Origin: Patescibacteria group bacterium | GTDB lineage: Bacteria; Patescibacteriota; Patescibacteriia; SG8-24; DYFX01 | Assembly (NCBI GenBank): GCA_030583805.1 | Contig: CP129476.1 | Span: 1,030,657-1,094,656 of the forward strand | Length of the DNA: 64,000 nt | Direction: 5' to 3' | Shown: positions 1,901-48,655 of the stretch, piece by piece | Numbering within the stretch: position 1 is the stretch's first letter | How the letters are laid out: every line of letters starts with the position of its first letter | Translations under genes and position numbers: made by a program | The notes under the pieces: model-generated | What the model was told of the DNA's origin: nothing | Seen by the model: only the letters and a program-made list of their open reading frames with translations | The model's database searches: none

Positions 1901-4822
1901 ATGAACACGCTCCAGCGCATCAAAGCCAAACTGTTCCTCCTCTTCTCAGGGAAGAGGGGGCTTTGGCGTTCGATGGCGCTGGGCGTTGTCGTGTTGGCGG
2001 CCATGGCGGTTCCGGCCGCCGTGCGCGCTGGAGAATGCGGCCTCGGCAGCCCGCATTCCTGCATCGCCATGATTTTCGTCTGGATCTTCCAGATCCTGAC
2101 GAGCCTCATGGGCTTCATCTTGATCATGGAAGTCGACGCCTTGATCCGCGTGGCCCAGTATTTCAACTTCGTGTCGCCTGGACCGACGGCGGTTCAGGTC
2201 GGCTGGGTCGTGACGCGGGACTTGGCGAACATGTTCTTCATCGTGTTCCTCATGATCATCGCCTTCAGCACGGTCATCGGGTACTCGAAGTACCATTATG
2301 AACAGACGCTGAAGAAGCTCCTGATCATGGCCGTCGTCATCAACTTCTCGAAGACGATCGTCGGCTTGATGATCGACGTGAGCCAGGTCGTGATGCTTTC
2401 TTTCGTGAACGGTTTCCGTGCCGCCGCGGCCGGCAACTTCATGAATGCGTTCCAGATCAACAAGCTGCTTCGGCTCGCCGACGGCGTGTCGGACTACAAC
2501 TTCGGCTTGGTGCTGGCCATGATGCTCGCCTTCATCCTGGCCGCGATCGCGGTGTGCGTCGTTCTCGTCATGCTGGTCATGCTCGTCTTCCGCGTGATCA
2601 TGCTTTGGGTGCTGATCATCCTTTCGCCGATCGCGTTCCTCACGGCCGCCTTCCCGCTCAGCGGCAATTATTACGCGCAGTGGTGGGCTGAACTCAAAAA
2701 ATACCTGGTCGGCGGCCCGGTGATCGCGTTTTTCTTGTGGCTGGCGCTGGCGACGGCTCAAGCGACGGGAGGAAATCTCTCGTCCGCACAGGAAGGCTGG
2801 GGTGTACAATCCACGGCTTCATCGCAAGAAGTGCAAGGACAGGCGGCGCGCCTCGAGCTCAACAGGCCGCAGATTCCGAGCGAGGCTGGGCGTACCGACA
2901 CTATTCTCAGCATGGTGATCGTCACCTGCATCATGTTCGCCGGATTGAAATTCGCGTCCGATCCGGCGATCGGTGGCATGGCGGCCGGTTTCGCCGGCAA
3001 GGTGAGGAGCAAGGCGGTATCCGCGCTTCGTGCGGGTACAGTTGGCGTTGCCGGCTATGGTTTGAAGCGCGCAGCTGAACCGCTTGCGACGGGCGTTGGC
3101 AGGGGTTTGGCGCGCGTTCCGCTCGTCGGCGGCGCCGGCCGCTACTTGGCGCTGACAGGCGAGAAGTGGAAGAAGGACCGCATCGCCAGCCGCGAAAAGA
3201 CCTTCGGCGGTCCGGAAGATTTCGCGCGTCTCAGCCCGGGCGCCTTCGTGCGGCAGATGAGTTCGCTGTCCCAGAAGCGCAAGCTTGATGATGTCGATAA
3301 GAAACGCCTGGACGGCATGCTTTCGACCGGTTTGAAAAATCCGGCTTTGGCGCAGAGTTTGACGAAGAGCGGACAAGGCCACGACACGCTCGACCAGCTT
3401 ATCCAGCAATCCAGCGGCAAGGGGTTGCAGGACATTGTCGGCACGGCGATTTCCGATAAGAACGCCAGTTCTTGGATGAAGGGCGACCCCGATCTCTTGA
3501 AGCGCACCTACGACAAGCTCCGATCGGAGTGGAAGGACAAAGATGGCAATGTGCTCGACCCGAACATGGCCAAGACGGTCGGAGAGTTCGAGCAAAAGTT
3601 CGCCGTGCCGCTGCACAAGAACGGATTGTTCAGCTCGATCCCTTCGGTCGCCGACGAAAAGCTGAAGCAGCTCGTGCCGAAGATGTCGTCCGACGATATC
3701 GGCGGTATTGCCAAGGATGACATGGGCTTCTTCATGAAGCACATGACCTCCGGTCAGCTCAAGAAGGTCATGTCCGACGGCAAGCCGGATCAGCTCGCCG
3801 GCGTCGGAGAAGAATTGAATAAGATGCCGCAGAAAGACGCGCTCGCCTTCATGCGCGAGAAGGGTTTCAGCGCGACGGATATCCCCACGAGCTGGTATTC
3901 CAGCAAGGATGAGAACGGCAAGGTGCAGTTCAGTAAAAATATCGCCGACTTCGTCTTGGCGTCGACAGCAGGAAACGCGGAGGCGCGCGCTAAGGTTATG
4001 GCGGATCCTGGACGCGCTGACGCATTGCGCAGCGCGGCGACGCGCGGCTTGAGTGGCGCTACGGCATTGAAGGACGACAACAAGATCGCTGCCGCTGCCG
4101 TTCAGGCGATGTCGGTTGGCGCCTTGAAAGTCGATGATCTGAAAAACGATTCGAAGCTGCTCGGCGTGCTTGGCAGCAGCATGGATACGGCGGCGCTTGC
4201 TCGCGGTATCAACAAGGATGATGCCGGACAATTGTCTGTCGCGCGCGAGGCGTTCAAGGCCGTTATGGCGCATGATCCGACCCGCGTACGCAACCTGAGT
4301 AAGAACGATCTCTACAACAAGCTTTTGCCGTCGAAGCAGGAAATCGACGCGGCGGTGGCCGCGCAGGCGGCCGGCGTGGCGCAGCAGAAAGCCGGAGAGC
4401 GTGTCGTTCAGAACAAGGGATTGGCTGACGAAGCATCAGAGCTCGTTGCCAATATGGATGCGCAACTGAAGACTCTTGCAAGAGAGATTGGAGAGGATAA
4501 ACTCGCGAGCCGGACCACGACAGCTAAGGAAGAACAGGAGGAAAGGTTGACGAAGGCATTGGAAAATCTCAGCCAAGCGACGCAGAAGCGCGGAGATGCT
4601 GAGAACGAGCTGGCGCGTCTTACGCAGCGTTTGACGGACGCACGCTCGAGTGGTGCGGATGCGGACAGTATCTCCGGCCTTGAAAGCGCGATCAAGGGCT
4701 TGGAGAGCAATATGCAAGAGTTGGAAGCTGGCTTGGCAAAGCAAGTCGCTCTTTCGAAAGGTATAAAAATCGATGAAGGCGGCGGCCGCAAGAACCGTCG
4801 TGGGGGAGGGGCGAACGTATGA
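1901..4822 (+). CDS. VirB6/TrbL-like polytopic membrane protein with long charged/coiled-coil C-terminal extension
   Basis: N-terminal ~330 aa contain 6-7 hydrophobic helices (e.g. IAMIFVWIFQILTSLMGFILI, MFFIVFLMIIAFSTVIGY). The remaining ~640 aa are K/D/A/E-rich and helical. Operon context with PrgI-like and VirB4 genes. Stop overlaps the next start (ATGA). Confidence 0.5.
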   Translation: MNTLQRIKAKLFLLFSGKRGLWRSMALGVVVLAAMAVPAAVRAGECGLGSPHSCIAMIFVWIFQILTSLMGFILIMEVDALIRVAQYFNFVSPGPTAVQVGWVVTRDLANMFFIVFLMIIAFSTVIGYSKYHYEQTLKKLLIMAVVINFSKTIVGLMIDVSQVVMLSFVNGFRAAAAGNFMNAFQINKLLRLADGVSDYNFGLVLAMMLAFILAAIAVCVVLVMLVMLVFRVIMLWVLIILSPIAFLTAAFPLSGNYYAQWWAELKKYLVGGPVIAFFLWLALATAQATGGNLSSAQEGWGVQSTASSQEVQGQAARLELNRPQIPSEAGRTDTILSMVIVTCIMFAGLKFASDPAIGGMAAGFAGKVRSKAVSALRAGTVGVAGYGLKRAAEPLATGVGRGLARVPLVGGAGRYLALTGEKWKKDRIASREKTFGGPEDFARLSPGAFVRQMSSLSQKRKLDDVDKKRLDGMLSTGLKNPALAQSLTKSGQGHDTLDQLIQQSSGKGLQDIVGTAISDKNASSWMKGDPDLLKRTYDKLRSEWKDKDGNVLDPNMAKTVGEFEQKFAVPLHKNGLFSSIPSVADEKLKQLVPKMSSDDIGGIAKDDMGFFMKHMTSGQLKKVMSDGKPDQLAGVGEELNKMPQKDALAFMREKGFSATDIPTSWYSSKDENGKVQFSKNIADFVLASTAGNAEARAKVMADPGRADALRSAATRGLSGATALKDDNKIAAAAVQAMSVGALKVDDLKNDSKLLGVLGSSMDTAALARGINKDDAGQLSVAREAFKAVMAHDPTRVRNLSKNDLYNKLLPSKQEIDAAVAAQAAGVAQQKAGERVVQNKGLADEASELVANMDAQLKTLAREIGEDKLASRTTTAKEEQEERLTKALENLSQATQKRGDAENELARLTQRLTDARSSGADADSISGLESAIKGLESNMQELEAGLAKQVALSKGIKIDEGGGRKNRRGGGANV

Positions 4823-6567
4823 TCGCGTCTGACGTCCTGCAGCGGAAGATCGATGCGCTGCCGGAGCCGGTGCTCGAGTACCTCTATTCGGAGCGCGCGG
4901 GCGCCCTGAATTTGGAAATCATCGAGCAGCACCAGCTGAACGAAAAACAGGAAGAAGCGTACTTCCAAATCCTGCGCGAACTGTTCGTCAAAGATCTTCC
5001 GCTTGAGCGCTTGCTGCTTGAGCTGAAATCCAAGCTCGGCCTCGATGACGCCAAGGCGAAAGCGCTGGCCATCGATATCGCGGGCAAGCGCCTCTTGCCG
5101 CTCGACAAGTGGCTCGCCGACGTTACGGCGTTTTTGCGCGCGCTCGGCGCCGACCCGAAAACGTTCCCGGATTTCCGCGTAACGATCGCGCGCCGCACGG
5201 TCGACGAGGCCGTGGAGGAGATTACGACGTCCGTCGCGTCCGAAGCGACCGGTCATCCGCAGCAGCGGTTGCAGAACGTCGTCGAGTCGGTGCTCGCCGG
5301 CGTGCGTACCGAAGCGCAGGCGCTCGACGTGCTGACCAGGCCGGAAAAAATCGGCGGTGTCGGTCTCGAGCCGAAAGCGGCCGAGCGCGTGCTTGAAGAG
5401 ATTCGCGAGGAATCGCATGCCGTCATTTTGGATCAGCGCGCGCCGCGGCACGAGAAAAAAGAGGAAGCCGCCCCGGCGAAAGCCAAGAACGTCGGGCTCG
5501 AATTGACGCCGGAGGACGCGCTCGAAGTCGCGCAGTTCAAGAAGGCGACGCCGGCCGTCGATATCGACGCGCTCGTGCAAGAAATTTATCTTGCGTCCGG
5601 CCTTGCTACGCAAGATGAGGCCATGGCGAAGCGCGTGAAGACGATTATCGGCAACCGCTTGCGCGACGTGCGCGACCAAATGGAAACGCTCGAGATCATG
5701 ATCCAGCCGAAAGAGCTGGGCGGTTTGAGCATGGGTCAGGACGCGGCACGCGCGCTCTTGAACCTCATTCAATCGCGTTTGCAAAAGACGGACACGGCGG
5801 CGCAAGCGAAGGTCCAGACGGAAAAGAAGAAGTGGGTGGAAACGGAGCGTTTGCAAAAAGCGCAGTCGGAAACCCAGGCGAACGTTGAGCAGAAAACGGA
5901 GCTTGAACAGCTGTACCAAAGCATCGTTTCAAAATCGAAAAAGGTCGCTCCGACGCCGGAGAAACCCGCCGCCGTAGCGACGATGTTGGACGGAAAGTCT
6001 GCCGCGCCGGCGAATCTTCCGATTTCTTCGGCCAGTCCCGTGCCTCCGGACTTCCGCGCGCCCGCCGCTCCGCCCGAAGAGCCCGCTGTTTCCGCCCCAG
6101 CCGCTCCGCCCGCCCGCCCGCCGCTTCCGCCCCCGGTCACGATGGTGAAGCCGATGCCCGCCCCCGCGCAGCCGCCGGCACCGGTTGCCGCGCCGGCATC
6201 ATTCGCGCAGCGGCCGAAACTCGACGACGTGAAAGCGTCGCCGAAATTGACCGGCCCGGTCGAAGAGCTTCGGGCGATCACCATCCTCGACTTCCGCCGC
6301 TTGTCCAGGGATCCGAAGGAAGCCTGCGTGAAGATCAAGGACAAGATCGATTTGCTCGGAGAGCAGTCGTACACCCGTCGGTCAGAGGGGATCGCTGCTT
6401 GGACCGCTTCCGAGGTGACCAGGACCTACCTCGAATTGATGCGGGAAAGCTTGAATGGCACGCCCCTTACGGAGGCGATCGCCGCTCGCGAAGCGGCCAA
6501 AAAGCCGGTACTTACGGCCGACGAGTTTCGGGCCGTGGCCGATTTGAGCCGGCAACTACGATATTAA
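4819..6567 (+). CDS. Hypothetical Pro/Ala-rich protein in T4SS-like operon
   Basis: 582 aa ORF translationally coupled to the upstream gene. Central proline-rich low-complexity segment (PPEEPAVSAPAAPPARPPLPPP). No recognisable catalytic motif. Confidence 0.45.
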   Translation: MIASDVLQRKIDALPEPVLEYLYSERAGALNLEIIEQHQLNEKQEEAYFQILRELFVKDLPLERLLLELKSKLGLDDAKAKALAIDIAGKRLLPLDKWLADVTAFLRALGADPKTFPDFRVTIARRTVDEAVEEITTSVASEATGHPQQRLQNVVESVLAGVRTEAQALDVLTRPEKIGGVGLEPKAAERVLEEIREESHAVILDQRAPRHEKKEEAAPAKAKNVGLELTPEDALEVAQFKKATPAVDIDALVQEIYLASGLATQDEAMAKRVKTIIGNRLRDVRDQMETLEIMIQPKELGGLSMGQDAARALLNLIQSRLQKTDTAAQAKVQTEKKKWVETERLQKAQSETQANVEQKTELEQLYQSIVSKSKKVAPTPEKPAAVATMLDGKSAAPANLPISSASPVPPDFRAPAAPPEEPAVSAPAAPPARPPLPPPVTMVKPMPAPAQPPAPVAAPASFAQRPKLDDVKASPKLTGPVEELRAITILDFRRLSRDPKEACVKIKDKIDLLGEQSYTRRSEGIAAWTASEVTRTYLELMRESLNGTPLTEAIAAREAAKKPVLTADEFRAVADLSRQLRY

Positions 6568-6607
6568 GGGGGGAGCGCGGCAGCGTAACCTGTGGTAAAA
6601 TACCGGC

Positions 6608-7036
6608 ATGCCCCAGTTCGTCGTCCCGCAATTCATCGACGTCGAGGACAAGATTCTCGGCCCGATCACGACACGGCAGTTCGTCATCCTGATGGTCGAC
6701 GGGCTCGTGATGTTTATCGTATACAAAATCCTGAGCCTGCCGTGGGCGATTCTGACCGACGTGTTGCTCCTGACGTCCGGTCTCGTGCTCGCGTTCGTGC
6801 GCATCAACGGGCAGCCCTTCCACTATTTCCTGCTGAATGTCCTTCAGACGTGGCGGCGTCCCCACGTGCGCGTGTGGAACAAGGAACTGAGCGACGCCGA
6901 AATCATCGCGCTTTCAAAAGTTGAACCGCCCCCGCCTCCGCCCGCCAAGCCGTACAAAGAGGCATTGACGACGTCGCGGCTTTCCGAGCTCGCGCTCGTC
7001 GTAAACACGGGCGGCGTCTACCAACCCGAAGAATGA
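6608..7036 (+). CDS. PrgI/VirB3-like small membrane protein of Gram-positive-type T4SS
   Basis: N-terminal QFVVPQFIDVEDKILGPITTRQFVILMV followed by two TM helices matches the PrgI family signature. Proline-rich tail (EPPPPPPAKP). Sits directly upstream of VirB4. Confidence 0.6.
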   Translation: MPQFVVPQFIDVEDKILGPITTRQFVILMVDGLVMFIVYKILSLPWAILTDVLLLTSGLVLAFVRINGQPFHYFLLNVLQTWRRPHVRVWNKELSDAEIIALSKVEPPPPPPAKPYKEALTTSRLSELALVVNTGGVYQPEE

Positions 7037-7055
7037 CCCGACCTTAGGAGGATCT

Positions 7056-7760
7056 ATGGCCCAGGCGAAACCACAACTCATGCAGAGCAAGAAGCTCGCG
7101 GGAGGGAAGCCGTCCAGCTCCACCCAGCAGTTTTTGGACGTCGCCGAGATCCGCGAAGACGTGGTCGTCATGAAGGATGGCACGATGCGCGCCGTGCTGC
7201 TCGTTTCCAGCCTGAACTTTTCGTTGAAGTCGGAAGACGAGCAGGAGGCGATCATCCAGGGCTACGTTTCCTTCCTGAATTCTCTGGAATCGCCGGTGCA
7301 GATCCAGATTCAATCGCGCAAGCTGAACGTCGACGACTATTTGAACCGGCTCAAGGAACAGGAAAAAACGCAGACGAACGAGCTCTTGCGCACGCAGATC
7401 GCCGACTATCGCCAGTTCGTGAAAGAGCTGGTCGATCTCGGCGAGATCATGCAGAAAAAGTTTTTCATCGTCGTGCCGTACAACCCGGCTTCGTCGAAGC
7501 GCAAGGGATTCTTCGCGCGCCTGTCGGAAGTCCTGACGCCGCTCGTTTCGGCCCGCTTGCGCGAAGAGCAGTTCCGTCAGCGCAAGAAGGATATTCTGGT
7601 GAAGGTCGATTCCATCCGCGCAGGCCTGAATTCGATGGGGCTCACGAGCGTCATGCTCGACACGCAGGGCCTGATCGAGCTGTATTACACGGCCTTCAAC
7701 CCGCAATCGATGGAGCGGCAGAAGCTTGAAAAAATGGACGCCTTACGCGTCGAAGCCTGA
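7056..7760 (+). CDS. VirB4/TraC-family N-terminal segment; in-frame with the downstream VirB4 ORF and separated from it only by a TGA
   Basis: Strong RBS (AGGAGG) 7 nt upstream. Sequence (FLDVAEIREDVVVMKDGTMRAVLLVSSLNFSLKSEDEQEAIIQGYVSFLNSL...) resembles the extreme N-terminus of Firmicutes-type VirB4. The stop at 7758-7760 is in the same frame as the ATG at 7764. Confidence 0.55.
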   Translation: MAQAKPQLMQSKKLAGGKPSSSTQQFLDVAEIREDVVVMKDGTMRAVLLVSSLNFSLKSEDEQEAIIQGYVSFLNSLESPVQIQIQSRKLNVDDYLNRLKEQEKTQTNELLRTQIADYRQFVKELVDLGEIMQKKFFIVVPYNPASSKRKGFFARLSEVLTPLVSARLREEQFRQRKKDILVKVDSIRAGLNSMGLTSVMLDTQGLIELYYTAFNPQSMERQKLEKMDALRVEA

Positions 7761-7763
7761 TTT

Positions 7764-9689
7764 ATGGCCTTCAATCCCATTACGGCCACGCGCGAGGCAG
7801 CCGCTCCGAAACCGGAGAAGCCGAAGCTGACCGCCGAAGAAAAAAAACGCCTTGCGCAGGAAGAGCGCATCAAGCTCGAGGAAGAGCGCATTTACCGCAA
7901 GGGCGTCGTCACGCTGCGCGATTTGATCGCGCCGGCGGCGTTTGAAGTCAAATCGAACCTCGTGCGGCTGGGCGACCTCTACGCGCGCACCGTTTTCGTC
8001 GTTACCTACCCGCGCTATCTTTCGCTCGGTTGGTTCACGCCGATCATCAATTTTTCGGCGACGATGGATATCGGCATGTTCTTCTATCCCGTCCAGCCGG
8101 AGATCATTTTGAAACAGCTGAAAAACAAAGTAGGTATTTTGGAAGCCCAGATCATCGGCGACGCCGAGAAAGGCGCCGCGCGCGATCCGCTCCGCGAAAC
8201 GGCGTTGCGCGACATTGAAAAGCTGCGCGACGACCTGACGCAGGGGATCGAGCACTTCTTCCAATTCGCGCTGTACGTGACGATTTTCGCGCCGTCCGAA
8301 AAGGAACTCGACGACCTGACCAACCAGGTCGAAGGCATGTTCGGTTCGAAGCTGATCTACACCAAGCGCGTGCTCTACCAGTCGGAACAGGGTTTCAACT
8401 CGACCCTGCCGTCCGGGAACGACGAGCTCATGATCACCTTCAACATGAACACGAGCCCGATCGCTTCGGGTTTCCCGTTCGTCTCGGCCGACCTGACGTC
8501 CGACAATGGCATCCTCTACGGCATCAACCGTCACAACAACAGCCTGATCTTGTTCGACCGCTTCTCGCTGCAGAACGCCAACGCGGTCGTCTTCGCCACG
8601 TCCGGCGCGGGTAAGAGCTACACCGTGAAGCTCGAGGTGCTCCGTTCGCTCATGCTCGGCATCGAGGTGATCATCATCGACCCGGAAATGGAGTACAAGC
8701 ACCTTTCTGACGCGGTCGGCGGCACCTACATCAATATCTCGCTCGCTTCCGAATCGAAGCTCAACATCTTCGATTTGCCGCGCCCGATGGGGGAGGAAGT
8801 GCGTTCCGAAGACATCATCCGCTCGGCCGTCATCACGGTGAAAGGCCTCATGCGCATCATGTTCGGCAGCGTCACTACAGCCGAAGACTCGATCATCGAC
8901 CGCGCGCTTTTGGAAACGTACGCGAAAAAGGACATTATCCCGGGCGTCGACCTCGCCACCATCGAGCCGCCGATCCTTTCCGATTTCCAGCAGGTGCTCG
9001 AAGGCATCACGGGCACGGAGGATTTGCAGATCAAGCTCCGCAAGTACACTGAAGGCACCTTCGCCGGACTTCTCAACTCGCCGACGACGGTCGAAATGAA
9101 CAACAAGCTCGTCGTCTTCAGCGTCCGCGACCTCGAAGACGAATTGCGCCCGCTTGGCGTCTACACGATCGTGAACTACATTTGGAACGTCGTCCGCTCG
9201 GAACGTAAAAAGCGCATCCTAGTGATCGACGAAGCCTGGTGGCTCATGCAGAACGACGACTCGGCGAAATTCATCTTCGCCCTGGTCAAGCGCTGCCGCA
9301 AATATTTCTTGGGCGTCACGACGATCACGCAGGACGTCAACGACTTCCTGCGCTCGCCTTACGGCCAGGCGATCGTCACCAACTCCGCGCTCCAGATCCT
9401 CCTCAAGCAGTCGGCAGCCTCGATCGATCTCGTCCAAAAGACGTTCTTGCTGACGGAAGGCGAGAAGTACCTGCTGCTCGAAGCCGGCGTCGGCGAAGGC
9501 ATTTTCTTCGCGGGTTCGCGGCACGCTGCCATCAAAGTCGTCGCTTCGTACGCCGAAGACCAAATCATTACGTCTGATCCCCGCCAGCTACTTGAGATCG
9601 AAAATGCCAAAAAAGAATTGGATGAACAGCTCATCCAGGCCTCCGAGAATCCCGGATCGCCTGCGAATCCCGCTCAACAACCCGCATAA
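7764..9689 (+). CDS. virB4: VirB4/TraC/CagE-family conjugal transfer ATPase (C-terminal ~3/4)
   Basis: Walker A (VVFATSGAGKSYTVK), Walker B (ILVIDEAWWLM), the LIAP...GWF region and a C-terminal ATPase core; typical VirB4 architecture. Confidence 0.85.
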   Translation: MAFNPITATREAAAPKPEKPKLTAEEKKRLAQEERIKLEEERIYRKGVVTLRDLIAPAAFEVKSNLVRLGDLYARTVFVVTYPRYLSLGWFTPIINFSATMDIGMFFYPVQPEIILKQLKNKVGILEAQIIGDAEKGAARDPLRETALRDIEKLRDDLTQGIEHFFQFALYVTIFAPSEKELDDLTNQVEGMFGSKLIYTKRVLYQSEQGFNSTLPSGNDELMITFNMNTSPIASGFPFVSADLTSDNGILYGINRHNNSLILFDRFSLQNANAVVFATSGAGKSYTVKLEVLRSLMLGIEVIIIDPEMEYKHLSDAVGGTYINISLASESKLNIFDLPRPMGEEVRSEDIIRSAVITVKGLMRIMFGSVTTAEDSIIDRALLETYAKKDIIPGVDLATIEPPILSDFQQVLEGITGTEDLQIKLRKYTEGTFAGLLNSPTTVEMNNKLVVFSVRDLEDELRPLGVYTIVNYIWNVVRSERKKRILVIDEAWWLMQNDDSAKFIFALVKRCRKYFLGVTTITQDVNDFLRSPYGQAIVTNSALQILLKQSAASIDLVQKTFLLTEGEKYLLLEAGVGEGIFFAGSRHAAIKVVASYAEDQIITSDPRQLLEIENAKKELDEQLIQASENPGSPANPAQQPA

Positions 9690-9694
9690 CGCCT

Positions 9695-10294
9695 ATGACT
9701 CCACGCCGCCGCGCCATCCTGATTATCGCGCTCGCCGCGCTCCTGCTCGGCGTGATTATCGTTGTCATCATTCTCGTGCGCCGCGCGGTGCCGAGCGCGC
9801 AGCCGCCGGCCGCCCAGCCGGTCGCGGAAGCGCCGACGCCGGAACAAGCCGCCGCCGCCGCGATCATCCAGAATCCCTTGGCGCCCGCCGTTACCGAGCC
9901 TGTCGGCCGCACGGCCGCGGCGCAGATGGGCGAGCTGTTCGCCGAGCGGTACGGCAGCTACTCGAACCAGGGCGACTACCAGAACGTGCGCGATCTTCTG
10001 CCCGTGATGACCGCCAAGTACCGCGCGCAGACGGAAGCGATGCTCGAAGACGTCGAACCGCAGCGCGAGCAGACGTTCGAGGGCGTGACGAGCGTAAAGA
10101 TTTCTTCCGAAGTGCGTTCCTATAACGAAGCGGCGGGCACCGCGGTCGTGGCCGTGACGCTTCAGCAAGAGAAAGTTTCCGGCGTCACGACGACGGTCGG
10201 GTACCGCACGCTCCGCATGGAATTGAAGCGGGAGGGGCAAGACTGGCGCGTCGACGCTTCACGCTGGGAGAATGAATTGACACCGATCAACTGA
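9695..10294 (+). CDS. Membrane-anchored periplasmic protein, possible VirB8/PrgL-like (NTF2-like fold) component
   Basis: Single N-terminal TM (ILIIALAALLLGVIIVVIILV), Pro/Ala linker, ~120 aa globular domain. Position immediately after VirB4. Assignment by context only. Confidence 0.3.
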   Translation: MTPRRRAILIIALAALLLGVIIVVIILVRRAVPSAQPPAAQPVAEAPTPEQAAAAAIIQNPLAPAVTEPVGRTAAAQMGELFAERYGSYSNQGDYQNVRDLLPVMTAKYRAQTEAMLEDVEPQREQTFEGVTSVKISSEVRSYNEAAGTAVVAVTLQQEKVSGVTTTVGYRTLRMELKREGQDWRVDASRWENELTPIN

Positions 10295-10314
10295 ATACCG
10301 TAGGACGCGCCCGT

Positions 10315-10968
10315 ATGTTCGGGCGCGTTTTTGATTTTCTCTTCCCGTTGGAGTGCATCGCCTGCGGCGCTTCAGGAGCGCATGCCTGCCGCGCGTGCCT
10401 CGCGAGCGTACCACTCGCGCCGCAAAGTTGGCGTTTGCCGGAGCTGCGCGCTTCGGCCGCTTTCGCCTACGGTCATCCGTTCGTGCGGCGGCTGCTGCAT
10501 GACGTGAAGTTCGAGCGCTGGACGTGCGCGCGTCCGGCTTTAGAGGCGCTGGCCGGACGATGGGCCGTGAAAGTCGGAAAGGGTTTTTGTCCTCCGGAAA
10601 CGGTCGTCGTGTCCGTGCCGTTGCACGCGAGAAAGCTTCGCGAGCGCGGGTTCAATCAAGCGGCGTTCTTGGCGGACGGCATCGCCGCCACGCTCGGTTT
10701 GCGTCGCGGCGACGCGTGGCTCTCCCGCGTCGTTCGCACGCGGCCGCAAACCGAAGCCGAGAACCGCGCGCGCAACGTGGTGGGCGCGTTTCATGCGCAG
10801 TCGTCCGTTTCGATGCGCGGACGGCCGGTTTTGCTCGTCGATGACGTCTGGACGACCGGCGCTACGATGCGGGAGTGCGCCAAGGCGTTGCGGCAAGCGG
10901 GCGCGGGGCAGGTGTTCGGTTTCGCCCTGGCCTGGGGGAGGGGAGAAAAAGAAAAGCTCCGCAGGTAG
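10315..10968 (+). CDS. comFC: ComF family protein (phosphoribosyltransferase-like competence protein ComFC)
   Basis: N-terminal Cys4 zinc finger (CIACG...CRAC), then PRTase-type fold with LLVDDVWTTGATM motif. Confidence 0.8.
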   Translation: MFGRVFDFLFPLECIACGASGAHACRACLASVPLAPQSWRLPELRASAAFAYGHPFVRRLLHDVKFERWTCARPALEALAGRWAVKVGKGFCPPETVVVSVPLHARKLRERGFNQAAFLADGIAATLGLRRGDAWLSRVVRTRPQTEAENRARNVVGAFHAQSSVSMRGRPVLLVDDVWTTGATMRECAKALRQAGAGQVFGFALAWGRGEKEKLRR

Positions 10969-10978: not shown

Positions 10979-11365
10979 TCAGGGCTTGCGGTCGTTGTGC
11001 TCGGGCGAAACGTACCGTTCCTCCGTGAGACCGATCAGGATCGTGTCGGCTTGGGCGCGGCCTTCGTGCATGACGCCGAGGGGGACGAGCAGTCGCTTCC
11101 CGGGCACCAGTACGAACTCGTTCGTCTCGTCGCCGCCGAGCGCGGTGAGCTTGAATGTGACTTGGCCGCGCAGGACGAAGAACAGCTCGCCGTACAGGTG
11201 ATAGTGCCTGCCCAGCACGATGTGCTCGCCCTGCTTCACCTCGGCCACCTTCACCTGCGCCGCCCCAGAGAAGCCGCGGACGTCGCCGTTGAACGGCGCA
11301 TAGAGCTTGCGACGGTGATCTTCGTGGCCTTCCGGAATATCTTCGAACACGACGCCATCGATCAT
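10979..11365 (-). CDS. Cupin-domain protein
   Basis: Beta-rich ~128 aa protein with cupin-like His pattern (HYHLYGELFFVLRGQ). RBS AAGGGAGGA lies 7 nt upstream of the second ATG (start chosen there). Confidence 0.45.
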   Translation of the reverse strand: MIDGVVFEDIPEGHEDHRRKLYAPFNGDVRGFSGAAQVKVAEVKQGEHIVLGRHYHLYGELFFVLRGQVTFKLTALGGDETNEFVLVPGKRLLVPLGVMHEGRAQADTILIGLTEERYVSPEHNDRKP

Positions 11366-11563: not shown

Positions 11564-11809
11564 ATGAAAAATTGGCACACCTACATCGTACGCTGCGCCG
11601 ACGGGAGTTTGTACGTCGGCATCACCACGGATCTCGAGGCGAGAATGTTGAAGCACAATGAAGGGAAGGGCGGAGCCTATACGCGCAGCCATAGGCCCGT
11701 CGTTTTGGTTTGGCATGAGACTGCTTCCTCCGAGTCGGCAGCGCGGAAAAGGGAAGCGGAGCTAAAGAAGTGGCCGAAGGCGAAAAAGGAGGAACTTGCC
11801 GGGGGATGA
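11564..11809 (+). CDS. GIY-YIG nuclease family protein (small stand-alone URI-domain protein)
   Basis: [18 protein letters not shown]...R...H motif typical of the GIY-YIG domain. 81 aa. Located 9 nt downstream of tRNA-Ser. Confidence 0.85.
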
Positions 11810-11894
11810 TGCCCCCCTTTGCCCTCTTGGCGCAGGCGAGGTATACTCCTGGCGATTTAAAATTAATCGATTCACTGAAGCTTTTTTATTTTGT

Positions 11895-14800
11895 ATGGTT
11901 ACGCTGAAGAAATCGAAAATTGTCCGTTTTTTGAGCGGTGTCGCCGTTGCGCTCCTGCTCGCCGTCTCTGCAAATACTATCCACACCCCTTCCGCACAGG
12001 CGGAGGTGCCGGACTTGGTTACGCATCTCAAGTTTGATAACGACGCGACCGACTCGGTGGGGGATAACGACTTCATTCTTCGCGGCACGACGAGCTTCAG
12101 CACGCAGGTTGCGCCCGTCGCGGGCAACGTCGCTTCGCTTCAGATCGGCGGAGTCGAGTCGCAGGCGCTCGGCGGTTGGGCTTTCTTCGACGGCTGGACG
12201 GGCGGCAGTCTCGCGTATTGGTTGCGCATCGATAGCGCAACAGCGCAGACATGGCCTGAAGGAAGCACGCGCGACTTGCTTTTCAAATACCAGATTCTTC
12301 AAACGAAAATCGTGAAGAACGCGGGTCAGCTCTGGCTCGTGACGACGCACGGCGACGGTACGTCGTTCGGCTCGAACACCTGGGTGACTTCCACGACCCC
12401 GCTTCCGGTGGACGCGTGGGTTCATGTCGTCACCACGCATACGGGCACGACCGCTTCCATCTACCTCAACGGCCAAGCGGCGGGTTCTGGTGACACGAAT
12501 AAAACGCTCGGCATCGCAAGCAGCGACATTTTCGAGATTCATCCGTACGACGGCGGTTTCGCCGGCCTGATCGATGAATTCCAAGCGTACAACCGCGCAA
12601 TCACGCAGGCTGAAGCGTCGGAATTGGCGGGAGGCGGCGGCGCTCCGACGACATTCACGGTTACGGCTTCCGCCGGCGCGAACGGTGCGATCACTCCGTC
12701 CGGCTCGGTCGTCGTGAACAGCGGCGCCAACCAGAGCTTCACGATCACGCCGAACGGCGGCTACCAGGTCGCGGACGTTTTGGTTGACGGCGTCTCGCAG
12801 GGTGCCGTTACGAGCTACACCTTCACGAACGTCACGGCCAACCACACGATCTCGGCTTCGTTCTCGGCGATTCCTCCGACGAACTACACGATCACCGCGA
12901 GCGCCGGCACGGGCGGTTCGATCACGCCGAGCGGTTCCGTTTCCGTATCCTCCGGACAGACCCAGGCCTTCACGATCACGCCGAACGGCGGTTATCAAAT
13001 CGCCAATGTCCTGGTGGACGGCGTTTCCGTCGGCGCGGTTTCGAGCTACGTTTTCTCGAACGTGAACGCCAACCACACGATTTCGGCGTCCTTCTCGACG
13101 GCGACGCCGCCGGAAGGCACGTTCCAGCTCGACGACCAATACATCACCGGACTCGCCAGCCCGACCGCGATGGCGTACGCACCGGACGGCCGCTTGTTCA
13201 TCACCGAACAGGCCGGCGCCGTGCGTATCGTCACGCCTGAAGGGCAGCTGCTCTCGCAGCCGTTCCTGGTCACGACCAACATGCGCAGCGATGAAGAGCG
13301 CGGTCTCTTGGGCATCGCCTTCGACCCGAACTTCACGACGAACAACTACGTCTACATCTTCTACACCGAGAACTCGCTCGGCGCGCGCCTCAGCCGCTTC
13401 ACGGCCAACGGCAACGTCGTCGTTCCGGGCAGCGAAGTCGTCCTGCTCGAGTACTACAACATCTCCGGCAACCATCGCGGCGGCGACGTGCACTTCGGTC
13501 CGGACGGCAAGCTGTACCTCGCTCTCGGCGACGCCGGCGAACCGCTCGAGTCGCAGTCGGTCACGACCTACAACGGCAAGATCCTTCGCTTGAACAGCGA
13601 CGGTTCGATTCCGAGCGACAACCCGACGACCTTCGTGGATAGCTCGGGCCAAACCTTGACTCCGGCCGGCCCGTACCGCGCCATCTGGGCGATGGGCCTC
13701 CGCAACCCGTACCGCTTCTCCTTCCACGCCACGACCGGAAAGATGCACATCAATGACGTCGGCGCGGGTCTTTGGGAAGAAGTGAACGTGGGCCAGGCTG
13801 GACGCAACTACGGCTGGCCGACCTGCGAAGGCTACTGCACGAGCCCGAATCCGAACGTTCAGGATCCGATCTACGTGCATGAGCGCGGCATCGAAGGCTG
13901 CGCCATCACGGGCGGCGCTTTCTACACGGGCAGCCAGTTCCCGGTCGAGTACCACAACGACTACTTCATCATCGACTACTGCAGCACCTGGCTTCGCTAC
14001 CTGAATGCGTCCGACGACGCTCAGGCGACGTTCCCGCTCTCGATCCCGATGTTCTCGGTCGACCTGAAGACCGCGACGGACGGCAGCCTTCTGATCGCCG
14101 GACACGGTTCCGGCACGATCTCCCGCCTTTCCTTCGTGAGCAGCAGCTCGAACAGCAATCCGGTCGCAAGCGCCTTGGCTACTCCGACGTCCGGACCTTC
14201 GCCGCTCTCGGTGTTGTTTGACGGTACCGGTTCGACGGATCCGGACAACGATCCGCTGACGTACAGCTGGGCGTTCGGCGACGGCGCAACCGGCACTGGC
14301 GCGACCGCAAACCACGTCTACGCGACGGGCGGCGCCTACACGGCCGTCCTGACCGTCACCGACGGCAACGGCGGCTCCGACACGGACAGTGTCCTGATTT
14401 CGGTCGGCGCTCCGCCCTCGGCCTCGATCCTCACGCCTTCCATTGGAACGCTCTACACGGCCGGCGATACGATCGCGTTCTCCGGATCGGCCACCGACCC
14501 GGATGATGGTGTCCTGCCCCCGAGTGCCTTCAGCTGGACCGTCGTGTTCCATCACGATGCGCACACGCACCCGCACCTCGGCCCTCTGACCGGCGTCGCG
14601 AGCAGCACCTTCACGATCCCGACGTTCGGCCACACGGAAGAAAATGTCTGGTACCGCATCAACCTGACAGTGACCGACTCGGCCGGCCTCCAGGCGACGG
14701 CATCGCGCGACGTCTATCCGCGCAAGGCGAACGTCACGCTTGATTCGAATATTCCGGGCACGCAGGTGCTTCTCGACGGCTCGCCCGTCGCGACCCCGTA

Positions 14801-15620
14801 CACGTTCGTCGGCGTCGTCGGTGTGCAGCGCACGATCGGCGTCACCTCGCCGCAAACGATCGGGGGACAGGGGTATGAATTCGGTTCCTGGTCCGACGGC
14901 GGCGCGCAGAGTCACACGATCGTGACGCCGAGTGCGACCACGACGTACGCCGTCGCCATGAATGTCCAAACGACGCCGACCTTGCCGGACCCTTCCCTTC
15001 ACTGGAAATTCGACAACAGTGAGATTGAAGAAGTCTTGGGCACGACGACGGTTCCGCGTGGAACGATCGTCTACACGACCGATACGGCGCCGACCGCCAG
15101 CGCAAATGCTGGCGCGGTCCAATTCAACGGAGCGGTTGGCACCTACTATGCGACGAACGGCACGAACATCCTGAACGCCTGGCCGGCCGCGACGAGCTCG
15201 GTCTGGGTGAAAATCACCGCCGCAACCGCCAATAGCTGGAACAACAACAGCTACCACGCCTTGCTGTTCAAATACCGCACGTTCCAGACCCGCATCCAGA
15301 AGACCTCGACGGGCTTGAAGTTCGTCGCCACGCATAGCGACGGCAGCGCACCCTTCAACACGCACATCACGTCGACAACTTCGATTCCGACCGATACCTG
15401 GGTCAACCTCGTGACGGTGCATGAAGGCACCACACTCACGATGTACATCAACGGCCAGCTGGCCGGCAGCGGCTCGACCGGCAGGACGTTCGGCGGCGCC
15501 AACACCGAAGGCCTTGACATCATCGGTCACGGCGGCAACTACACCGGACTGCTCGACGATCTCCGCTTCTACAACACCGCCTTCACCGAGGCGCAGGTAC
15601 AGCAGATCCCGCTGCAGTAA
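11895..15620 (+). CDS. Giant secreted multidomain protein: signal peptide, LamG/ConA-like lectin domains, InlB-type B-repeats, PQQ-dependent glucose/sorbosone-dehydrogenase-like beta-propeller, PKD domain
   Basis: Signal peptide [28 protein letters not shown]. Repeated ~75-aa [18 protein letters not shown]...[12 protein letters not shown] modules. SGDH-like propeller motifs ([30 protein letters not shown]). PKD-like segment ([28 protein letters not shown]). LamG-like N- and C-terminal domains. Confidence 0.7.
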
Positions 15621-16635: not shown

Positions 16636-18663
16636 ATGGGACTTTCACCCGAATTGCCGATCTCCAAGCTGGGCGTCCTGGGCGCCCGCCTGGCCAAACC
16701 CCTGCGCGCCATGGGGCTGCTTACGGCCGGTGACCTGCTCCGCTATCTGCCGTTTCGGTACGAGGACTTGAGCCGAACCGTGCCGCTCGCCGGGCCGTCC
16801 GACGGCCTGGTGACGGTCCGGGCCAGGATCGACCTTATCCGCACGCGCCGCTCTGCCCGCCAAAACATGCTGCTGACCGAAGCGACGATCTCCGACGAGG
16901 TCGGGAGCGCCAAGGTCGTCTGGTTCCGCCAGCCGTATATTTCGAAAGTCTTGAAACCGGGCGACCGCGTGTTGTTGTCGGGAAAATTGGAATCGAAACC
17001 GTGGGGTTTGGAGATGGTGAGTCCCGCGTACGAAAAAGAGCATGCGGGCGCACCGGTGCATACGGGCCGCCTGGTTCCGGTGTATTCCATTTCCGGAGCC
17101 CTGACCACCAAGCAGATCCGCGCCGTGCTGCATCTCGCGCTGCCGGCCGCCGACGCTCTCGAAGAGACGCTCCCTGATTTCCTGCTCGCGCGCCACGGGC
17201 TGGAGCCGCTCGGTTCGGCGCTCCGAAAAATCCATTTTCCAGAATCGATGGAAGACGCCGAAGTCGCCGACCGCCGGTTCCGTTTCGAGGAGCTGTTCTT
17301 CTTCCAGCTGCGCGGCGCCTGGGCTCGCCGGGCGCTTGAGCGGAAGCGCGCGCTGGCCGTGCCGTTCGATCAGGCCGCCATCCGCGACTTCGTGGCTTCG
17401 TTGCCGTTCGCGCTGACCGACGACCAGAAGCGCGTTGCCTGGAGAATCCTGCAAGATCTCGAAGCGGGCCGTCCGATGCAGCGCCTGGTGGAAGGGGACG
17501 TCGGCAGCGGCAAGACAGTCGTCGCGGCCATGGCGATGTACGCCTGCGCCCTGGTCGGCTACCGGAGCCTGCTCATGGCGCCGACGGAAATCTTGGCCGA
17601 GCAGCATTACGCGACGATCTCGCGCCTCTTGGAGGGCACGCCGTTCCGCGCTGCTCTCCGCACGGCCTCGCGCAAGGAAGCACATGAAGACGCCTCGATC
17701 GTCGTCGGCACGCACGCCCTTCTGACGAAAGGCTTCCTGCCGAAATACGTAGCGCTCGTCGTCGTCGACGAGCAGCATCGGTTCGGCGTGGGGCAGAGGC
17801 AGACGCTGCTTTCGAAATTGCCGGACGGAGAAAAAGAGGAAATCCCGCACTTTTTGTCGATGACCGCCACGCCGATTCCGCGCTCCTTGGCGCTCGCGCT
17901 GTACGGCGACGTCGATTTTTCCGCGCTCCGCCAGATGCCGCCCGGCCGCCGTCCGGTCGAGACCTCCTTGATCGGGGAGCGGGACCGTGCCGCGATGATG
18001 GCGCATGTGCGCGCTGAGGCCGCCCACGGCCGCAAGACGTTCGTCGTCTGCCCGCTCATCGAGGCTTCCGATACGCTCGGTGTGAAGTCGGCCGAAGAAG
18101 AAGCTGAACGGTTGCGTGTGGAATTGTCGGGGCTCGAGATCGGGCTTTTGCACGGGCGCATGAAGTCGGATGCCAAGCGCGAGATCATGGAACGCTTCGC
18201 CGGGGGCGATCTGCACGTGCTCGTCTCGACGACGGTTATCGAAGTCGGCGTCGATGTGCCGATGGCCACCACGATGGTCATCGAAGGCGCCGAGCGTTTC
18301 GGCATGGCGCAGTTGCACCAGCTGCGCGGCCGCGTCGGCCGTTCGTCGCTTCCGTCGCGTTGCTACCTGGCCCCTTCGCACGGCGCGCCCCAGGTGATCG
18401 AGCGTTTGCGCGCCTTCGTCCAGGCCAAGGATTGTTTCGAATTGTCGGAACTCGACCTGCGCTTCCGCGGCCCCGGCAGCCTGTTCGGCGAAAGCCAATC
18501 CGGTTTTGCCGACCTGCAGCGTTTTCGTCCCGGCGACGCCGCCTTGATCGAAGAAACGCGCGAAGCCGTCCGCGCGCTGACCGAAGCCGATCCGGACCTC
18601 GAAGCGCATCCGCTTTTGAAAAAGAAAATCTCGGCTGAAGCCGAGAAGGTGCATTTGGAATAA
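16636..18663 (+). CDS. recG: ATP-dependent DNA helicase RecG
   Basis: Wedge domain, helicase motifs I (GDVGSGKT) and II (DEQH), RecG-specific C-terminal region. 675 aa. Confidence 0.9.
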   Translation: MGLSPELPISKLGVLGARLAKPLRAMGLLTAGDLLRYLPFRYEDLSRTVPLAGPSDGLVTVRARIDLIRTRRSARQNMLLTEATISDEVGSAKVVWFRQPYISKVLKPGDRVLLSGKLESKPWGLEMVSPAYEKEHAGAPVHTGRLVPVYSISGALTTKQIRAVLHLALPAADALEETLPDFLLARHGLEPLGSALRKIHFPESMEDAEVADRRFRFEELFFFQLRGAWARRALERKRALAVPFDQAAIRDFVASLPFALTDDQKRVAWRILQDLEAGRPMQRLVEGDVGSGKTVVAAMAMYACALVGYRSLLMAPTEILAEQHYATISRLLEGTPFRAALRTASRKEAHEDASIVVGTHALLTKGFLPKYVALVVVDEQHRFGVGQRQTLLSKLPDGEKEEIPHFLSMTATPIPRSLALALYGDVDFSALRQMPPGRRPVETSLIGERDRAAMMAHVRAEAAHGRKTFVVCPLIEASDTLGVKSAEEEAERLRVELSGLEIGLLHGRMKSDAKREIMERFAGGDLHVLVSTTVIEVGVDVPMATTMVIEGAERFGMAQLHQLRGRVGRSSLPSRCYLAPSHGAPQVIERLRAFVQAKDCFELSELDLRFRGPGSLFGESQSGFADLQRFRPGDAALIEETREAVRALTEADPDLEAHPLLKKKISAEAEKVHLE

Positions 18664-19744: not shown

Positions 19745-21049
19745 CTAAAATAGCGCGGTCAAAGCATTTTTCAGGTGAGGAGAATTTTTCGGCGTGATGA
19801 CCTGGCTGAATTGAAGGCGCTTGGCTTCCGCTTCGCGCTTGTCGACGAACGTGACGGGCCGCAGCTCGCCGCCCAGCCCGACTTCGCCGAAAGCGGCGAG
19901 CGAGGAGGGGAGCGGCTTGCCGGAAAGCGCCGAGACGACGGCCAGGACGACGGCGGCATCGGCAGCGGGTTCTTTCACCTTGTAGCCGCCGGCCACGTTG
20001 ATATGGATGTCGTGGGTTTGCGTCGGTACGCCGAGGCGCTCGGACAATACGGCGAGCAGCACTTGCAGGCGATTGGCGTCGAAACCGGAAGCGCGGCGCT
20101 GTGGGTAGCCGAATGTCGTGCGGCTCGCGAGCGCTTGGATCTCGACCAGGATCGGTCGCGTGCCTTCCATGATGCAGGTGACGACGGAACCGGGAACGTC
20201 TTTCGAGCGATCATGCAAAAAGAAGGAAGACGGGTTGGCGACTTCTTTGAGACCGGCTGCCGTCATCTCGAAAACGCCGACTTCGTCGGTGGCGCCGAAG
20301 CGGTTTTTGGCGGTGCGGAGCAGGCGGTAGTTGGAGGAGCGGTCGCCTTCGAACGAGACCACGACGTCGACGAGGTGCTCGAGCGTTTTCGGACCTGCGA
20401 CGTCGCCGTCCTTCGTGACTTGTCCGACGAGCAGCATCGGTACGCCACTCCTCTTGGCGAACTCCATGAGCTGCGCGGTCAGGGCGCGGATCTGAGACGC
20501 GCCACCTTGGGCGCCTGCTGCTTCGGGGGAGGAGAGCGTCTGGATCGAGTCGATAATCACGAGCGAAGGCTTTTCGGCTTCGATCGTGGCGAGAATGGTC
20601 GAGATATCCGTTTCCGATTGGAACTTGAGGCTTGAGGCCGCCAAGCCGAGGCGCTCGAAACGCAGCGCGACCTGCTCGGCCGATTCTTCCCCGGAGGCAT
20701 AGAGCACGTTCGGTAGGGAAGAGGCGACTTGAAGGAGCAGCGTTGATTTGCCGATGCCCGGTTCTCCGGAGAGCAGGACGAGCGATCCCGGAACGACGCC
20801 GCCGCCCAGCACGCGGTCGAATTCGGCGATGCCTGTCGAACGATGAGCCGTTTTCGAGCCTTTTAACTCGGCAAGCGAGAATGTCTTTCCGGGGCGGCCT
20901 GCGGCAGCCGTCGGTTTTTTCGCTTGGGGAACGGATGCGGCCTCGGCCACGGTGCCCCAGCCTCCGCATTCCAAACAACGCCCGCTCCACTTGGTGGACT
21001 GGGCGTCGCATTTGGTGCAGATGAAGAGCGTTTTCGCGGCCGTTGTCAT
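19745..21049 (-). CDS. radA: DNA repair protein RadA/Sms
   Basis: N-terminal C4 zinc finger (CTKCDAQSTKWSGRCLECGGWG), Walker A GEPGIGKST, KNRFG motif, C-terminal Lon-protease-like domain. Confidence 0.9.
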   Translation of the reverse strand: MTTAAKTLFICTKCDAQSTKWSGRCLECGGWGTVAEAASVPQAKKPTAAAGRPGKTFSLAELKGSKTAHRSTGIAEFDRVLGGGVVPGSLVLLSGEPGIGKSTLLLQVASSLPNVLYASGEESAEQVALRFERLGLAASSLKFQSETDISTILATIEAEKPSLVIIDSIQTLSSPEAAGAQGGASQIRALTAQLMEFAKRSGVPMLLVGQVTKDGDVAGPKTLEHLVDVVVSFEGDRSSNYRLLRTAKNRFGATDEVGVFEMTAAGLKEVANPSSFFLHDRSKDVPGSVVTCIMEGTRPILVEIQALASRTTFGYPQRRASGFDANRLQVLLAVLSERLGVPTQTHDIHINVAGGYKVKEPAADAAVVLAVVSALSGKPLPSSLAAFGEVGLGGELRPVTFVDKREAEAKRLQFSQVITPKNSPHLKNALTALF

Positions 21050-22267: not shown

Positions 22268-22912
22268 TCAGCGAGCAGCTTCAAGCAGCTCTTCGTACGT
22301 CAGGTTTCCGGTGTGTCGCTTGCCGTTGATGAAAAAGGTCGGCAGCGCGTCGATACCGAGCGCCAAGCCCTCGTCGATCGTCCGTTCGACGAACGGACGC
22401 ATGTCGTGCGACTGAAGGCATTCCGCGAACGCCTGGGCGTCGAGGCCGCTTTGTCCCGCCAAAAACGTGAGCGCCGTCTCGTTATAGGAGCCGGTATGCG
22501 CGAAGAGCGCCGTGTGGAACTCCCAGAAGGCGCCTTGTTTTCCCGCGCACATGCCCGCTTCCGCTGCCGTGTCGGCGTCGGGGTGAAGAGGGGACGGCAT
22601 GTCCTTCCAGACGAAACGCACGCGTCCGGGCTGCTCGGCGAGCAGGCGCCGTACCTGATCCTCCGAGGTGCGGCAGTAGGGGCACAGGTAATCGCCGAAC
22701 TCAACGATCGTCACTTCGGCGTCCTTCGGGCCAAGGATCTGGTCCACGAACGTGATGCTGGGTTCCTCAAGCGTTCGCACCGACTGCTCGTTCTTTTCAA
22801 TGACGGGCTCGTTGCCGGCGATCGTCGCGCGCACCACGTTCCAAAAAATGCCAAGCACGGCTCCTCCAAGCACGAGCGCGATAAGGATGACGAGAAAAAA
22901 CTTGCGCTGCAT
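22268..22912 (-). CDS. DsbA-family thiol:disulfide oxidoreductase, membrane anchored
   Basis: Thioredoxin-fold CPYC active site (FGDYLCPYCRT), N-terminal TM. Confidence 0.8.
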   Translation of the reverse strand: MQRKFFLVILIALVLGGAVLGIFWNVVRATIAGNEPVIEKNEQSVRTLEEPSITFVDQILGPKDAEVTIVEFGDYLCPYCRTSEDQVRRLLAEQPGRVRFVWKDMPSPLHPDADTAAEAGMCAGKQGAFWEFHTALFAHTGSYNETALTFLAGQSGLDAQAFAECLQSHDMRPFVERTIDEGLALGIDALPTFFINGKRHTGNLTYEELLEAAR

Positions 22913-46276: not shown

Positions 46277-46316
46277 AAGGAAGTGAGCAGGCGCAAGCCC
46301 GTACTTAAATCTAGCC

Positions 46317-46354
46317 TTTGCCCCGTTCGCCCTTCTTCCTGTAGGATCGGGTAC
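46317..46354. repeat. 38-bp direct repeat copy 1 (duplicate of dnaE promoter region)
   Basis: TTTGCCCCGTTCGCCCTTCTTCCTGTAGGATCGGGTAC; 36/38 identical to 48656-48693. Confidence 0.75.
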
Positions 46355-46465
46355 GTCGTTAGTGAACCTTAATAAATCCCTTTGGTGCCAGGTACGGATA
46401 ACCGTGAATTTTAGAAAAAACATGCTACACTAAATCTAGTTGTGAAGTGTTAATTCGCACACACT

Positions 46466-48137: not shown

Positions 48138-48139
48138 GT

Positions 48140-48652: not shown

Positions 48653-48655
48653 TGT

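Follow-up and report, generated by a model that had tools for sequence, protein, structure and literature searches.

The 64,000-nucleotide stretch analysed here (contig CP129476.1 of the Patescibacteria group bacterium assembly GCA_030583805.1, positions 1,030,657 to 1,094,656; hereafter the window) carries a compact block of seven + strand genes, g1-g7, at window positions 1901-10968. Neighbouring genes in this block are separated by gaps of 3-40 nt or overlap. By identity and architecture, the block is read as a relaxase-free, chromosomal type IV secretion system (T4SS) cluster of the Patescibacteria type with the ABY1 layout, a reading that is given a probability of about 80%. The genes are the following:

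1901-4822, + strand: g1, 973 aa; polytopic, weakly VirB6/TrbL-like, candidate channel subunit
4819-6567, + strand: g2, 582 aa; orphan family
6608-7036, + strand: g3, 142 aa; PrgI/VirB3-like
7056-7760, + strand: g4, 234 aa; TrsD-like, free-standing VirB4 N-terminal domain
7764-9689, + strand: g5, 641 aa; VirB4 ATPase, CD1110/MPF-FATA type
9695-10294, + strand: g6, 199 aa; bitopic VirB8-like
10315-10968, + strand: g7, 217 aa; ComF(C)-type

An initial annotation of this DNA described eight co-directional, tightly packed genes. The common direction and the tight packing stand, while the count is seven and reaches eight only when the open reading frame (ORF) upstream of g1 is included. The stop of g1 and the start of g2 overlap by 4 nt (ATGA), and the block contains no internal sigma-70-like promoter or convincing terminator, apart from a hairpin at the g6/comF junction. 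The window has a GC content of ~60% and is rich in long antisense ORFs, and for this reason the coding frames of g1-g7 needed checking. All seven ORFs have protein-level homologues elsewhere, in the same order, and confident AlphaFold (AF2) models were obtained for g2 and g6. Both observations argue against a decaying locus, in which a frameshift would have disrupted virB4 and the ORFs around it would be high-GC artefacts, an explanation that the many long spurious antisense ORFs would otherwise favour.

The gene arrangement was followed in a scan of a genome collection that returned >500 relatives. Synteny was counted on the best 80 species-level Patescibacteria loci, and the fractions given per gene refer to the assessable loci among these 80. 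Such a comparison across related genomes had been suggested in the initial annotation, and it gives the same order in 80 species-level genomes, with VirB4 identities of 69-92%. The individual genes are found in the same place as follows:

TrsD-like gene (g4): 78/78 loci
PrgI (g3): 76/77 loci, median identity 50%
g2: 68/71 loci, median identity 30%
g1: 52/58 loci, median identity 37%
g6: 54/76 loci by tblastn, median identity 28%
ComF: 62/70 loci, median identity 32%

The count for g6 is probably too low because its identity is only ~28%. The conserved gene arrangement is far beyond chance, and as g1, g2, g6 and ComF have drifted to ~28-37% identity, gene order has outlived most of the sequence similarity.

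Many of the operon-bearing contigs (L003-L005, L009-L012, L030, L061 and others) carry record titles such as 'uncultured Gammaproteobacteria', Methylomirabilis or Binatia, with VirB4 identities of 70-92%. These are probably mislabelled or mis-binned records of metagenome-assembled genomes.

The g3 protein matches the Pfam family PrgI (PF12666) at 3e-9 and 37.7 bits, above the gathering score (GA) of 27, in agreement with the PrgI/VirB3-like label that it had been given, and hydropathy indicates 2-3 hydrophobic segments. The g5 protein matches NF045971, the model for the VirB4-like conjugal transfer ATPase of the CD1110 family, at 5.6e-104 and 348.9 bits (curated cutoff 325), as well as P-loop_TraG at 7.3e-28, and its Walker A (GAGKS) and Walker B (VIDEAW) motifs are intact. 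It shares 25% identity over 564 aligned columns with PrgJ, the VirB4 of pCF10. By family-model match and identity, g5 is assigned to the VirB4 ATPases of the monoderm MPF-FATA lineage. The preceding gene, g4, matches models of TrsD/TraD and of the VirB4 N-terminus, namely NF041427 TrsD (3.2e-9, 36.9 bits, below the curated 200) and NF045975 (8.3e-10, likewise below the curated cutoff), and PF26593 TraC-like is on record for it. BLASTP against pCF10 PrgJ places g4 on residues 65-135 and g5 on residues 222-772, and since they cover separate parts of PrgJ, the two together tile one VirB4.

The initial annotation spoke of a VirB4 in two pieces, which is correct in so far as there are two ORFs, lying 3 nt apart. 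Such a split could be taken as the mark of a frameshifted and decaying gene. However, a separate TrsD-like ORF of 224-251 aa lies 5' of virB4 in each of the 78 assessable loci and matches the TrsD family, and because this order recurs in 80 species-level genomes, the split is the normal, native TrsD+VirB4 arrangement and not a pseudogene. Together with the intact Walker motifs, the confident models of g2 and g6 and the homologues found for every ORF, this leaves decay of the locus with a negligible probability.

The distance between the two ORFs varies in a few genomes. In L044 (2308-10000), L047 (1132-6040), L051 and L056, 5-8 kb of extra genes separate the trsD-like gene from virB4; in other related genomes the two are a few nucleotides apart.

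The g6 protein alone has neither a Pfam match nor a PDB sequence match. Its orthologues show scattered weak Pfam matches, which all fall in NTF2-type families; VirB8 and TcpC are among these, each matched by one orthologue at ~2-3e-3. The AF2 model of g6, built from a 61-sequence alignment, has a mean predicted local distance difference test score (pLDDT) of 91.4 and consists of a transmembrane (TM) helix (residues 3-31), a linker and an NTF2-like domain (residues 70-191), in which three helices and a four-stranded curved sheet form an alpha+beta cone. In a Foldseek search against the PDB, the top match of this model is the VirB8 domain of PrgL from pCF10 (7aed; 2.2e-4), and further matches are CagV, pIP501 TraH, an IcmL-like protein and R388 VirB8 (8rtd_Y), amid generic NTF2 proteins. 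Furthermore, hhalign of the g6 orthologue profile against PrgL gives a probability of 89.4% with an E-value of 2e-6 for this single comparison, while PrgL appears at E=0.14 when the profile is searched against the PDB. The earlier suggestion of a TM-plus-globular, possibly VirB8-like protein thus agrees with the predicted structure. In the model, g6 is VirB8-like, as fold, topology and gene position agree; sequence evidence alone is insufficient. The assignment also fits the published note that the few VirB8 matches in Patescibacteria are nearly all from ABY1 (Quinonero-Coronel et al. 2025; PMC12102498).

The first gene of the conserved block, g1, encodes a polytopic membrane protein beside virB3 and virB4. 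Hydropathy places 7-8 hydrophobic segments within residues 25-352, and these are followed by a charged, K/D/E/S-rich tail of ~620 aa that is poorly conserved even among close relatives. The segment just past the last TM helix is K/R-rich, which suggests that the tail is cytoplasmic. A VirB6-like polytopic protein with a ~640-aa extension had been annotated here; the polytopic region and a tail of ~620 aa are retained, and the VirB6 identity is weakly supported by its relatives. Sub-threshold Pfam TrbL matches occur in 10/53 g1 orthologues (best 1.1e-5) and in 4/8 database homologues (best 25.1 bits against a GA of 25.9), covering model positions ~2-190 of 215, and precomputed Pfam records on g1 homologues include PF04610 and PF19590. 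A tblastn search with the g1 TM core against 72,556 plasmids returned no match. Tentatively, g1 is classed as a probable extended VirB6. Extended VirB6 proteins of Rickettsiales and other T4SSs have the same layout of a polytopic N-region followed by a large hydrophilic extension, but the g1 extension has no sequence relationship to theirs, and its membrane side is deduced from composition.

The product of the second gene, g2, lacks both a TM segment and a signal peptide, and is a cytoplasmic orphan. Its AF2 model (pLDDT 83.5) contains two helical domains, at residues 1-205 and 231-374, the second of which ends in a 68-residue helix, then a disordered Pro-rich linker (377-478) and a well-conserved helical C-domain (480-581). 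The earlier description as Pro-rich holds for residues ~377-478, whereas the remainder is confidently helical. An internal repeat (R1/R2), which contains a GG(L/V)G loop, comprises residues ~146-205 and ~267-330. Pfam and NCBIfam scans of g2, its four segments, the family consensus and 66 orthologues gave no consistent family, and PDB sequence and profile searches gave nothing. In Foldseek searches, the best E-values are 1.4 against the PDB and 0.074 against viral structures, with faint sigma-70, TFIIB and RuvA look-alikes only. The 582-aa protein had been listed as of unknown type, and structure prediction indeed provides no fold match. A possible reading of the GG(L/V)G loops as helix-hairpin-helix DNA-binding motifs is not claimed, as the loops are ~11 residues long and no family of that motif scores.

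A full HMMER scan of 1.84 billion representatives found 1,973 g2 relatives at E<=1e-30 and 3,417 at E<=1e-3, with lengths of 272-838 aa among the 150 matches listed. The g2 family is thus large and unnamed, without a Pfam model or fold match, and g2 is as fixed in the operon as VirB3. It abuts g1 in about half of the related loci; elsewhere, 1-4 kb lie between g1 and g2. In four of the latter loci (L018, L025, L052 and L061), this interval encodes an additional ORF that resembles g2, chiefly the N-terminal half of g2, so that g2 is modular or partly duplicated.

Systems of this kind are known from a survey of 3,035 Patescibacteria genomes (Quinonero-Coronel et al. 2025; PMC12102498), which described a VirB4 clade that is monophyletic and lies within MPF-FATA, abundant TrsD, PrgI, VirB6-like and VirB2-like genes, with TrsD as the most abundant T4SS-associated protein, and almost no relaxases. 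The same study reports that ABY1 T4SS loci 'commonly include' comF, recG and radA, and all three are present in the window. The locus shares with this clade the VirB4 of CD1110/MPF-FATA type by family match, the adjacent TrsD and PrgI genes, a weakly VirB6-like gene and a VirB8-like gene, the chromosomal location and the lack of a detected relaxase. Nothing essential differs, although the published survey does not annotate the 582-aa gene, nor most of the VirB8 and VirB6 components. A 2025 review lists the Patescibacteria systems as a new T4SS branch. As the system and its ABY1 comF linkage are already published (PMC12102498), the locus is less novel than the initial annotation assumed. Categorically it is nothing new, but a clean and complete ABY1 example on a 1.17-Mb contig. 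New here are the VirB8 fold of g6, the g2 family and a pilin-DsbA-propeller module tied to the locus (see below).

The core of the locus is colinear with the conjugative MPF-FATA system Prg/Pcf of Enterococcus plasmid pCF10, in which prgH (VirB6), prgI (VirB3), prgJ (VirB4), (prgK) and prgL (VirB8) follow one another. This colinearity, and the derivation of the VirB4 lineage from monoderm conjugation systems, would fit the remnant of a conjugative element or integrative and conjugative element (ICE), with relaxase and coupling protein located elsewhere or lost. However, pCF10 encodes a hydrolase (PrgK), a coupling protein (PcfC), a relaxase (PcfG) and an adhesin (PrgB), and all four are missing from the window locus; in addition, the locus has g2 inserted, a 620-aa VirB6 tail and a split VirB4, while the VirB4 of pCF10 is a single protein. 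Among the genes scanned in the 64-kb window, no relaxase, VirD4/TcpA coupling protein or integrase was found, and a PrgK-type cell-wall hydrolase was detected neither in the operon nor in the other scanned window genes, so that the conjugative MPF-FATA hallmark set of relaxase, VirD4/TcpA and cell-wall hydrolase, complete in pCF10, is not detected here. That the operon itself lacks a relaxase, a VirD4 coupling protein and a pilin, as first annotated, is confirmed. The locus furthermore lies amid housekeeping genes at a uniform ~60% GC and occupies the same place in 80 species with the VirB4 identities given above, and for 99% of patescibacterial VirB4s the nearest relative comes from the same class (PMC12102498). 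An ICE remnant is therefore very improbable, and like the pseudogene explanation it is effectively excluded on conservation and context.

The last gene of the block encodes a ComF protein with an N-terminal four-Cys zinc ribbon (CxxC-x7-CxxC), a type-I phosphoribosyltransferase domain (Pribosyltran, 30.9 bits against a GA of 26.3) and the phosphoribosyl pyrophosphate (PRPP) loop VLLVDDVWTTGAT. Over its full length it matches the comF/GntX models TIGR00201 (8.2e-21) and PRK11595 (1.1e-22), below their curated cutoffs. The zinc ribbon, the PRPP loop and the full-length matches agree with the ComFC label of the initial annotation. Between g6 and comF lies one further feature:

10302-10331, + strand: hairpin, GC-rich 12 bp, followed by a T-run; the comF ATG lies in the loop

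The same hairpin is found at this junction in L002 and L003 with altered stem bases, and another, different terminator-like hairpin occupies the junction in L005. The element is a candidate attenuator or translational control element that may gate comF expression.

Beyond the seven genes, the surroundings contain several features that accompany the T4SS in other genomes or are large surface proteins:

1-1896, + strand: C-terminus of a giant protein, the last 631 aa of 2970 aa; ends 4 nt before g1
11796-15620: LamG/PKD/glucose-sorbosone dehydrogenase-like protein, 1241 aa; large surface protein just past comF and tRNA-Ser
16636-18663, + strand: recG helicase, linked to the T4SS in 20 other loci
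19745-21049, - strand: radA/sms, linked in 17 other loci, rearranged ones included
21087-22265, - strand: pilin-domain protein, 392 aa, with an N-terminal VirB2-like T4SS_pilin domain; linked in 13 loci
22268-22912, - strand: DsbA-like thiol-disulfide oxidoreductase, co-conserved with the pilin-domain gene
22914-24146, - strand: PD40/WD40-type beta-propeller, co-conserved with the pilin and DsbA genes

The complete giant protein (L085 1084-9996) has a signal peptide, 107 Cys residues (3.6%), one CBM_4_9 domain and a poly-Gly tail, which bears out the Cys-rich secreted protein with a poly-Gly tail described directly upstream. Giant ORFs adjoin g1 in only ~12 relatives, and other genomes have pth, prmC or unrelated ORFs there. 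Given this variation 5' of g1, the conserved block begins with g1, and the giant protein is a lineage-specific neighbour. Pilins were also sought among the short ORFs that precede g1 in other genomes, and these ORFs proved to be pth, prmC or unknowns. The housekeeping order around the locus comprises ksgA upstream, then tRNA-Ser, recG, a HAD hydrolase, radA, clpB and phosphoglucomutase (pgm), and further along pheT, HU, dnaE, thrS, miaA and gatB.

The pilin/DsbA/propeller/radA module is located ~10 kb downstream of the operon. The 392-aa protein matches T4SS_pilin (PF18895) at 1.3e-6 and 28.8 bits (GA 26.6), with two TM helices in the pilin domain and a Cys-rich C-terminal domain of ~290 aa; a CHAP/NlpC-like hydrolase was considered for this C-domain on the basis of a GD..V..G.H motif and is without Pfam support. 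Linkage of parts of this module, of recG and of a 172-aa ORF to the T4SS recurs in 13-20 further loci. In L011, L029 and L036, the pilin-DsbA-propeller-radA block lies directly 3' of the VirB8-like gene, with ComF not in that position, and in L029 the pilin-domain gene immediately follows the VirB8-like gene. In several genomes, the trio of pilin, DsbA and propeller stays with radA and the T4SS despite rearrangement. The pilin-domain gene is part of the wider conserved neighbourhood, though it stands outside the operon.

The locus would encode a non-conjugative envelope machine. In the mechanism proposed here, g1, g3 and g6 (VirB6/VirB3/VirB8) would form a translocon in the cytoplasmic membrane, on whose inner face TrsD and VirB4 would dock to supply energy. 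The g1 tail and g2 may form a cytoplasmic platform that takes over from a coupling protein. The VirB2-like pilin-domain protein would constitute the external part, probably with disulfides made by DsbA, and the giant Cys-rich surface protein possibly joins it. Nucleic acid may move inward during host contact and be handed over as single-stranded DNA (ssDNA) to ComF and then to RadA/RecG.

T4SSs without both a relaxase and a type IV coupling protein (T4CP) include the ComB uptake system of Helicobacter pylori. Because of this precedent, and because the linkage to transformation-type genes persists through rearrangement, the analysis leans tentatively toward import of DNA in the manner of ComB or Ced rather than conjugative export; this would be a possible function, held at somewhat less than even odds. 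Counted in its favour are the adjacent ComF in 62/70 loci, the radA block following the VirB8-like gene in L011, L029 and L036, and a weak match of g5 to the archaeal DNA importer CedB (2.3e-11). ComB (with ComEC/ComFC) and archaeal Ced are T4SS-derived machines without relaxase or coupling protein, and their function is tied to ComF-type ssDNA handling or to DNA import. The resemblance of the locus to them is drawn by analogy: ComB consists of a diderm VirB2-10 set and is not encoded beside comF, and Ced contains the unrelated CedA proteins. A more specific version, in which the ABY1 T4SS is a monoderm DNA-import machine that takes DNA from the host or surroundings through VirB6/VirB3/VirB8 to ComF and on to RadA/RecG, with g2 and the VirB6 tail as a new receiving or coupling module replacing VirD4, is considered unlikely as a whole.

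Equal weight with DNA import, and hence the same tentative standing, is given to a T4SS for host interaction, which would build a pilus or adhesive structure or export protein onto or into a host bacterium. The neighbouring comF, recG and radA would then reflect co-regulation (e.g., induction by host contact) or inherited synteny, and DNA would enter by the usual type IV pilus (T4P)/ComEC route. The closest experimental case is the T4SS of Southlakia epibionticum (SEML1_0006-0019), which Tn-seq identified as essential for epibiotic growth of this member of the Saccharibacteria, while ComEC, ComF and DprA are dispensable; the study proposes that this T4SS exports protein or serves some other purpose (Wang et al. 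2023; PMC10633639). Both systems are of the monoderm type, chromosomal and without a recognisable relaxase or coupling protein, and VirB2-like pilins in Southlakia parallel the pilin-domain gene of the window. In contrast, the Southlakia system belongs to the class Saccharimonadia, has peptidase/lysozyme genes and an array of pilins within its cluster, is not located beside comF and has no VirB8 structural homologue found there; its essentiality is experimental. Host interaction is further favoured by the linkage of the VirB2-like pilin-domain gene, DsbA and the giant Cys-rich or LamG/PKD surface proteins to this locus, and by the terminator-like hairpin that splits g6 from comF. On the other hand, most effector-translocating T4SSs need a coupling protein and none was found, the large secreted neighbours have Sec-type signal peptides and hence need no T4SS, and the linkage to transformation-type DNA genes survives rearrangement.

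Several points weigh against the T4SS cluster and DNA import as read here. For the channel subunit, g1 itself has no Pfam match at E<=0.1, TrbL included; hhalign of its orthologue profile gives probabilities of 2% for pCF10 PrgH and 0.7% for R388 TrwI, and a PDB profile search with g1 recovers no VirB6. The NTF2 fold of g6 is generic, and its Foldseek E-values are modest (2e-4). Synteny inside one class could be partly inherited and not selected. The hairpin between g6 and comF implies that comF may be regulated separately, and the dispensability of ComEC/ComF/DprA in Southlakia, the one patescibacterium in which this has been tested, implies that the essential T4SS there does something other than Com-dependent uptake (PMC10633639). 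Moreover, the gene view is that of the 64-kb window, and VirD4, ComEC and T4P genes elsewhere in the genome would lie outside it.

T4SS genes belong to the small set of functions that Patescibacteria are known to require for epibiotic life. For the T4SS cluster described here, the analysis provides a sharper parts list, comprising a confidently modelled VirB8-fold subunit, the unannotated g2 family and the co-travelling pilin/DsbA/propeller/RadA module, and these parts offer concrete targets for the modelling of interactions and for experiments on DNA movement.

Two small ORFs lie beside tRNA-Ser between comF and the LamG/PKD gene: a 128-aa cupin-domain ORF with a weak Pfam match (10979-11365, - strand) and an 81-aa GIY-YIG protein (11564-11809). 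Farther along the window, just upstream of dnaE, a low-GC island at ~46000-48700 (0.41 compared to ~0.60) contains HTH_3/Peptidase_M78 (ImmA/IrrE-like) and DUF4411 genes, and looks like a horizontally acquired two-gene module.

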